A stretch of DNA of 16,776 bases from Escherichia coli (GTDB taxonomy: Bacteria; Pseudomonadota; Gammaproteobacteria; Enterobacterales; Enterobacteriaceae), in assembly GCF_003334765.1 (NCBI RefSeq), contig NZ_QOWT01000053.1; one strand, 5' to 3'. Shown piece after piece: positions 9,936-10,232 of this stretch. Every line of letters begins with the position of its first letter. The stretch's first letter is position 1. The translations under genes were made by a program, and so were the position numbers. The notes under the pieces are model-generated. The model was given only the letters and a program-made list of their open reading frames with translations. It was not told the origin of the DNA and made no database searches.

Positions 9936-10232
9936 TTAGCGGTGATGTTTGCCTGGACCATGACCGCCGTGATGATCATGAGGAGCTTTCTTATGGTGGC
10001 GCGGCGGTGGCGGCGGTCCGTGTGGGTGCCAGCGATTGCCTCGCCATTCATAATGTTGTTTCCACCAGCCGTGGTCGCGCCAGTGACCTCCATCCCAGTA
10101 ATAGCCACGATTATCACGATCGCCTATCTGTAATTTTACTGACGGGACTAACGTAATTTCCGCAGCCTGTGCTGCCATGGGAGCGACCAGAACCAGGGAA
10201 AGTGCGAGTACGATAGATTGCATCTTTTTCAC
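9936..10232 (-). CDS. yaaX: Small secreted His/Trp/Pro-rich protein YaaX (DUF2502-type), 98 aa, apparent GTG start
   Basis: ORF 9936..10232(-). First codon on the DNA is GTG (window 10230-10232, read as cac) with GGAG ~7 nt upstream; in-frame ATG three codons later. Signal-peptide-like N-terminus [23 protein letters not shown], then a mature region rich in His, Trp, Arg, Pro and Gly. Confidence 0.8.

Follow-up and report, generated by a model that had tools for sequence, protein, structure and literature searches.

yaaX is the fifth gene on the Escherichia coli K-12 map and is still an orphan. Its product is a small protein dense in histidine and tryptophan, which raises the question of what such a protein does. 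In the window, that is, the whole stretch of 16,776 nucleotides analyzed here, the yaaX coding sequence occupies positions 9936-10232 of the minus strand and consists of 98 codons from a GTG start (10230-10232) to a TAA stop (9936-9938). The window presents the thr region reversed relative to the K-12 map. The immediate neighbors of yaaX are thrC (10446-11732, minus strand) and yaaA (9006-9782, plus strand), the latter convergent to yaaX. RefSeq labels the identical sequence as yaaX, DUF2502 domain-containing protein, and the product is identical to K-12 YaaX (b0005) at 97 of 98 residues, with proline in place of leucine at residue 70 as the sole difference. The gene name given in the original prediction is thus confirmed by both the annotation and the K-12 match. 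Its picture of a small exported His- and Trp-rich protein holds as well, and omits the minus strand, the DUF2502 family, the paralog YpeC and the Rcs regulon. Elsewhere in the window, a 714-nt gene between yaaI and satP (L001 2410-3123, about 4109-4822 of the window) carries the RefSeq label "msyB: acidic protein MsyB". We take the gene at the same yaaI-satP position in K-12 to be yaaW, and the msyB label is maybe a naming quirk.

Five other genera (Salmonella, Enterobacter, Kosakonia, Yokenella and Citrobacter) share the gene order thrABC-yaaX-yaaA-yaaJ-talB, and a query of 801 bases around yaaX finds matches in all 5,426 complete E. coli genomes. In essentially all of these genomes the core of the gene keeps at least 95% identity, and its location does not vary from genus to genus, most of the changes being synonymous: over a 47-codon core, other genera differ from E. 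coli by synonymous-only differences at 17-23 codons and by non-synonymous ones at 7-11, and 65%-77% of the core nucleotide differences fall at third positions. Core conservation and synonymous bias together effectively refute the idea that yaaX is a spurious or decaying gene call, a compositional accident of a GC-rich repeat. We give that idea practically no credence, even though many database entries have frameshifted tails and the tail is hypervariable. No tandem repeat was found by Tandem Repeats Finder in the yaaX tail. The gene is also transcribed, and ribosome pausing on it has been reported (PMC3599342, PMC13410324). yaaX is therefore a real, ordinary and already catalogued orphan gene. 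The gene, its DUF2502 family and its Rcs induction were all on record before, and hence as an object it is already known.

The start codon and the N-terminus are well defined. Reading of the sequence places a Shine-Dalgarno element, AAGGAG, at 10239-10244 on the minus strand, 6 nt upstream of the GTG. This element and its spacing are largely conserved in the five other genera, as GGAG in four and GGGCG in Yokenella. In all five, an ATG stands exactly at the position of the E. coli GTG. An ATG at the same position behind a conserved ribosome-binding site supports the GTG start, in line with the GTG and good ribosome-binding site originally proposed. A 49-codon ORF (10229-10378, minus strand) overlaps the yaaX GTG with its TGA stop. 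It was considered as a gene and set aside as non-coding, having no third-position bias and stop codons in two genera. Some database gene calls (P0034, P0092) extend YaaX N-terminally through this upstream ORF region.

Codons 1-23 (10164-10232, minus strand) are predicted to encode a Sec-type signal peptide with cleavage at AQA|AE, assessed by inspection and by conservation among orthologs. Its features are standard: an n-region MKKMQS with a charge of +2, an h-region of 11 residues with a mean Kyte-Doolittle hydropathy of 3.2, Ala at the -3 and -1 positions, and Pro at -6. All 18 orthologs compared keep P18 and A23, in agreement with the signal peptide claimed beforehand. The N-terminus carries no twin-arginine motif, and YaaX has no Cys, so it would not be a lipoprotein. 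From these features we infer that YaaX is exported and located in the periplasm. An earlier description of YaaX is that of a "putative periplasmic protein" (PMC2731931). The mature protein would have a mass of ~8.9 kDa.

The composition of the mature protein is highly unusual. After cleavage at AQA|AE, the 75 remaining residues include 13 His, 6 Trp, 11 Gly and 9 Pro, so the approximate length and the His and Trp counts first given were exact, as were the PPPPP run and the C-terminal 30 residues quoted with them. With typical background frequencies, the binomial probability is 1.4e-8 for at least 13 His in 75 residues and 1e-3 for at least 6 Trp. The sum of His and Trp per 75-residue stretch does not exceed 8 in any other long ORF of the window, against 19 in YaaX. 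The mature protein is strongly hydrophilic (GRAVY -1.76) and contains 14.7% Gly. In its K-12-type form it is basic, with a pI of ~10 and a charge of +6 at pH 7 and +15 at pH 5.5. Since the predicted mature N-terminus is AEI, YaaX has no ATCUN motif.

The conservation of these residues divides the protein into two parts. The first is the DUF2502 module, codons 24-71 (10020-10163, minus strand), delimited by Pfam, conservation, an AlphaFold2 model and purifying selection. Pfam DUF2502 (PF10697) matches residues 25-73 at model positions 1-61 of 90, with E = 1.9e-13 and a score of 50.8. Five Trp of the mature protein (W46, W51, W57, W63 and W68) are invariant in 18 enterobacterial orthologs, together with D38, D40, D47, D53, R52, R64, G37, G43, G48, Y61 and a few aliphatic residues. 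No His is invariant in this set, the best being H60 at ~90%. A core motif G-D-R-D-x-x-G-x-Y-W-D-G-x-x-W-R-D-x-x-W-W is present at residues 37-57. Among 82 diverse members of the family, G37, G43, W46 and W51 are invariant, and D40, Y45, D47, G48, R52 and W57 are conserved in at least 90%. Judged from its codon changes, the module is under purifying selection. An AlphaFold2 model built on the 82-sequence alignment gives a pLDDT of 87-95 for residues 31-70, against ~51 for the tail, and predicts the core as a small irregular domain with one short helix. Mean pairwise identity among orthologs is 78% in the core and 31% in the tail. The invariant Trp, the pLDDT and this split in identity together suggest that the Trp belong to a folded mini-domain and most of the His to a disordered tail. 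The composition dense in His and Trp was thus correctly counted at the outset, and needs amending in one respect: the Trp are not loose composition, since five of the six occupy invariant positions of the module.

The second part is the tail, codons 72-98 (9939-10019, minus strand), predicted to be disordered and found to be hypervariable and His-rich on the basis of pLDDT, identity and composition. In 82 intact members of the family, the median tail composition is 25% His, 19% Asp and 20% Arg+Lys, and the median fraction of hydrophobic residues is 0. Most other genera have tails rich in His and Asp that end in ...RPGPDWKHH. Distant members have HGGG, HGHG or polyPro-His tails, and some of them have tails poor in His (3-10%). 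The K-12-type tail is atypical in being basic (+4) and poor in Asp. The positions of the His do not align across the family. By these comparisons, the tail is conserved as a composition and not as a sequence. The two-part anatomy that we infer here, a core followed by a tail kept in composition only, is an addition of this analysis.

The same data bear on the second suggestion of the original prediction, a membrane-active peptide, read here as a cationic or antimicrobial-like one formed by mature YaaX or by its tail. It is true that the K-12-type mature protein is basic and, like some antimicrobial peptides, rich in Trp, Arg and His. Such a peptide, however, requires that charge and amphipathicity be kept, and across the 82 members neither is: with His left out, the median net charge of the tail is 0, and 47 of the 82 tails are neutral or negative, most orthologs in other genera are Asp-rich, and the tails have neither hydrophobic residues nor an amphipathic pattern. 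The Trp residues appear to be placed in the folded conserved module, and no immunity gene or exporter adjoins yaaX. The suggestion is accordingly disfavored, and we regard it as very doubtful. This argument against a cationic peptide is a further addition of the present analysis. As far as sequences can tell, the composition of the tails speaks more for a low-specificity response to metals or pH than for a cationic membrane-active peptide.

The tail begins with a run of five prolines, PPPPP, at codons 73-77 (10002-10016, minus strand), read from the sequence as a polyproline ribosome-pause site. A proline-related pause in yaaX is seen in nascent-peptide and ribosome-profiling data, according to a review (PMC13410324). 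With PPPPP in the K-12-type allele, the yield of the protein should depend on elongation factor P. The length of the Pro run is 5 or 6 among database entries, with six in-frame Pro in P0004 and P0008. Many public E. coli YaaX entries (P0009, P0015, P0020, P0058 and others) have the tail in another frame, which is entered at varied places, either within the CCG/CCA polyproline stretch or before it.

Within E. coli, the tail exists as two alleles. Over its first 210 nt, yaaX shows 95% identity or more in 5,425 of 5,430 matching records (5,426 genomes), and the last 87 nt are bimodal: ~4,030 genomes have the K-12 type and ~1,390 a second allele, the two being ~75% identical. No intermediates between them were found among the 5,426 genomes. 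The second allele encodes ...PYGPPPSPRHNKHNDHRGDHRPGLDKHHR, which is nearer in look to the tails of other genera and has PPPSP in place of PPPPP. In a sliding comparison, the divergence is confined to about 9780-10020, that is, the tail and the yaaX-yaaA spacer, and the flanks are mostly 95-100% identical. The existence of two tail alleles in E. coli is likewise an addition of this analysis. The spacer is ~94 nt shorter in the other haplotype, and is 59 nt long in L013. It contains REP-type repeats at 9787-9927 (sub-threshold Rfam matches to naRNA4 and ES036), and because of them the 801-base query matches at a median of 26 places per genome. The Rfam matches were all sub-threshold and derived from REP elements. 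A GC-rich hairpin, GCCGG-N8-CCGGC, was read from the sequence between the convergent yaaX and yaaA genes (9909-9926) and is followed on the plus strand by a T-rich run.

DUF2502 relatives form a small family, since phmmer, run exhaustively against 1.84 billion cluster representatives, returned only 115 clusters at E <= 1e-3. Judged by the names on the matches, the family is essentially limited to Enterobacterales, with a few outliers such as Deefgea. One match, a 1,956-residue SLH/Ig-repeat protein (P0204), was rejected as a repeat-inflated chance match. E. coli has one paralog, YpeC (b2390), with 60% identity over 68 residues. In distant members, a signal peptide precedes the module, which is present singly or in duplicate, and the protein ends in a hydrophilic tail of low complexity. 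The genes at four distant homolog loci stand alone, with no informative operon and no metal link. Searches beyond the family yielded little: NCBIfam gave weak matches, none near the curated cut-off and three limited to the signal-peptide region; the PADLOC defence models gave nothing for yaaX; a profile search against PDB sequences gave no match even at E = 10; and Foldseek against the PDB gave one meaningless match. A structure search of AFDB50 returned DUF2502 proteins exclusively among the 50 matches listed. The negative results of the structure searches are weak evidence, because the domain has only ~40 residues.

Two further features of the family are worth recording. One subfamily has an invariant C-terminal motif C-P-P-G-Q-x-K-K-x-x-C with two Cys; its carriers are P0143, P0159, P0170, P0187, P0194, P0212, P0213, P0218 and P0228 (locus L008 5001-5375), and in a Pfam scan, its proteins ending in CPPGQAKKG[NR]C matched DUF2502 alone. 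In addition, ypeC-type genes are convergent to mntH, the gene for an Nramp Mn transporter, and lie near nupC (L002 8002-8328; L009 and L011 5001-5522), an arrangement shared by E. coli and distant Enterobacterales. OxyR controls both mntH and yaaA, which serve metal homeostasis, and their convergence with DUF2502 genes may be coincidence.

The DNA upstream of yaaX is also conserved. A hairpin followed by a T run at 10396-10422 (minus strand), read from the sequence, is the terminator of the thr operon and divides thrC from the control region of yaaX. Its stem shows compensatory changes between genera, and it was missed by the consensus scanner because its loop is long. From this terminator to the start codon (160 nt; 10233-10395), E. 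coli is 78-80% identical to four genera and 58% identical to Yokenella. Conservation of the thrC-yaaX intergenic region thus equals that of the yaaX coding core in four of five genera, with several invariant purine-rich blocks. One block, TTAGGATTGCGGAGAATAAC (10301-10320, minus strand; -88 to -69 from the GTG), is a candidate regulator site by its conservation, with 17 of 20 positions invariant across six genera and one occurrence per E. coli genome. No block of this type was found upstream of ypeC. A 7-bp inverted repeat is also conserved across genera (GAGATTA at 10318-10324 and TAATCTC at 10275-10281; together 10275-10324, minus strand), and the TAATCT within it is a possible -10 element. 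In a consensus fold, ATTC(C/T) might pair with the ribosome-binding site; the pairs of this fold say little, because nearly all are invariant. Consensus scans called no minus-strand promoter and no terminator, including at the 9909-9926 hairpin.

Published work reports that Rcs activation raises the yaaX transcript. The gene is listed in an RcsB regulon table with a 1.9-fold change (PMC2731931), and the promoter of a Serratia DUF2502 gene is an rcsB-dependent reporter (PMC8470065). The RcsB box has the consensus TN(G/A)GAN4TC(T/C)NA (PMC7913699). TTAGGATTGCGGAGAATAAC includes TAGGA, one half of this box. No exact RcsB box was found upstream of yaaX, the sole match in the window falling inside yaaA, so that Rcs control of yaaX may be indirect. 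Colicin M induces yaaX with log2 values of 1.59 and then 4.12 (PMC3599342). A LolCDE inhibitor raises yaaX 8.4- and 12-fold and ypeC 42- to 60-fold (PMC5105897). In E. coli O104:H4, a DUF2502 gene is up by log2 5.4 after a four-week stay in soil at 4 C (PMC10667640). yaaX also belongs to a set of 23 genes whose expression differs in all four cusS mutants grown in LB, together with zraP and cus genes (PMC10920338).

The explanation that we consider best assigns different roles to the two parts. In the periplasm, the tail would bind divalent transition metals (Zn, Cu, Ni) with low specificity and high capacity and/or serve as a pH-titratable element, and the conserved module would anchor it to an envelope partner; YaaX and its paralog YpeC would together buffer the envelope or protect it under stresses of the Rcs or Mar type. 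We put forward this division, a tail acting as a low-specificity periplasmic metal- or pH-responsive element and a module responsible for a specific interaction, as a serious but tentative proposal. His persists together with Asp although the tail sequences are otherwise free to drift, a pattern in keeping with loose binding of divalent metals at several sites or with titration around neutral pH, and putative metal binding by YaaX is plausible. A defined metal site is not indicated, because the positions of the His are not conserved: a search for positionally conserved metal ligands found no invariant His and no Cys, and the core has its four invariant Asp. Metal binding alone would be no proof of function, since any peptide with 9-13 His binds Ni, Zn or Cu in vitro. 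The literature that we found places yaaX in no regulon of a dedicated metal-responsive regulator; its co-expression in the cusS mutants (PMC10920338) is the sole metal link, and its known induction, as published, is by envelope damage. The statement made at the start, that YaaX has no established function, agrees with our reading of the searchable literature, in which all the bacterial papers naming yaaX or ypeC offer lists of expression or binding-site data and no experiment on the protein itself was found.

The residues that are conserved also admit a role unrelated to metals. YaaX might act in the periplasm as a protectant or chaperone-like factor, hydrophilic and partly disordered, in which the Trp/Arg/Asp module binds an envelope polymer (candidates are peptidoglycan, the LPS core, colanic acid and periplasmic glucans) or unfolded envelope proteins, and the tail is no more than a soluble, pH-titratable spacer. 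The conserved residues are indeed Trp, Asp, Arg and Gly and not His, and aromatic-plus-acidic surfaces are typical of sugar binding. The GRAVY and Gly content of mature YaaX given above also fall within the "hydrophilin" criteria. The pattern of induction fits as well: yaaX responds to peptidoglycan, lipoprotein and outer-membrane damage alongside spy, ivy, osmB and capsule genes (PMC3599342, PMC5105897). However, no similarity in sequence or fold to known glycan-binding or chaperone families was found in Pfam, NCBIfam, PDB and structure searches, and a protectant leaves the ~25% His in otherwise free-drifting tails unexplained. We consider this role, the main rival of the metal- or pH-responsive tail, possible, if somewhat unlikely. 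The remaining probability belongs to other, unnamed functions.

A bolder version of the metal- or pH-responsive proposal can be drawn. The DUF2502 module might be a new Trp-ladder mini-fold that recognizes a specific envelope component, for instance a glycan or a fragment of peptidoglycan, the His/Asp tail a switch gated by metal or pH, YaaX and YpeC a hitherto unrecognized class of periplasmic protective proteins induced by Rcs and Mar, and the two alleles a pair kept by selection, for example by different host or metal environments. We think this combination improbable. yaaX and ypeC are among the more strongly induced orphan genes under envelope damage by antibiotics, bacteriocins and lipoprotein-trafficking inhibitors. 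If the tail buffers periplasmic metals or the module binds an envelope polymer, YaaX would be a new effector of the Rcs response, on which capsule formation and tolerance to antibiotics partly depend. The split into core and tail, together with the two alleles, offers a clear experimental design of core-only, tail-only and allele-swap constructs.

It is instructive to compare YaaX with known systems. His-rich metal-binding tails or repeats occur in Hpn, in the tails of SlyD and HypB and in the HGGGW octarepeat of the prion protein. The YaaX tail resembles these segments in its very high His content, its predicted disorder and its HGGH, HGPG and HH motifs, and distant DUF2502 members have HGGG, HGWGH and HGHG motifs. 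Unlike YaaX, the examples are cytoplasmic or eukaryotic, and the likeness implies no homology. RcnB (YohN), which acts in Ni/Co homeostasis, is, as YaaX would be, a small periplasmic enterobacterial protein linked to metals; a relationship between the two was rejected, as hhalign gave a probability of 10% over 4 columns.

ZraP, Spy and CpxP are, like YaaX, small and induced by envelope stress, and are exported, as YaaX putatively is. ZraP has His-rich segments and binds zinc. They have no sequence relationship to YaaX, which matches no Pfam family but DUF2502 and whose one NCBIfam match to Spy covers the signal peptide alone (E = 0.2), and they are all-helical, whereas the predicted YaaX core is irregular with one short helix. 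Co-induction with yaaX or a DUF2502 gene has been seen for spy (PMC3599342, PMC5105897) and for zraP (PMC10920338, PMC10667640).

The paralog YpeC shares the anatomy of YaaX, a signal peptide and a DUF2502 module followed by a low-complexity hydrophilic tail. Its tail differs in being rich in Arg, Gly and Tyr, with fewer His (15%). Unlike yaaX, ypeC adjoins mntH, has a marbox visible upstream and is a target of MarA and SoxS (PMC5684230, PMC10268841). Both genes are induced by the LolCDE inhibitor (PMC5105897).
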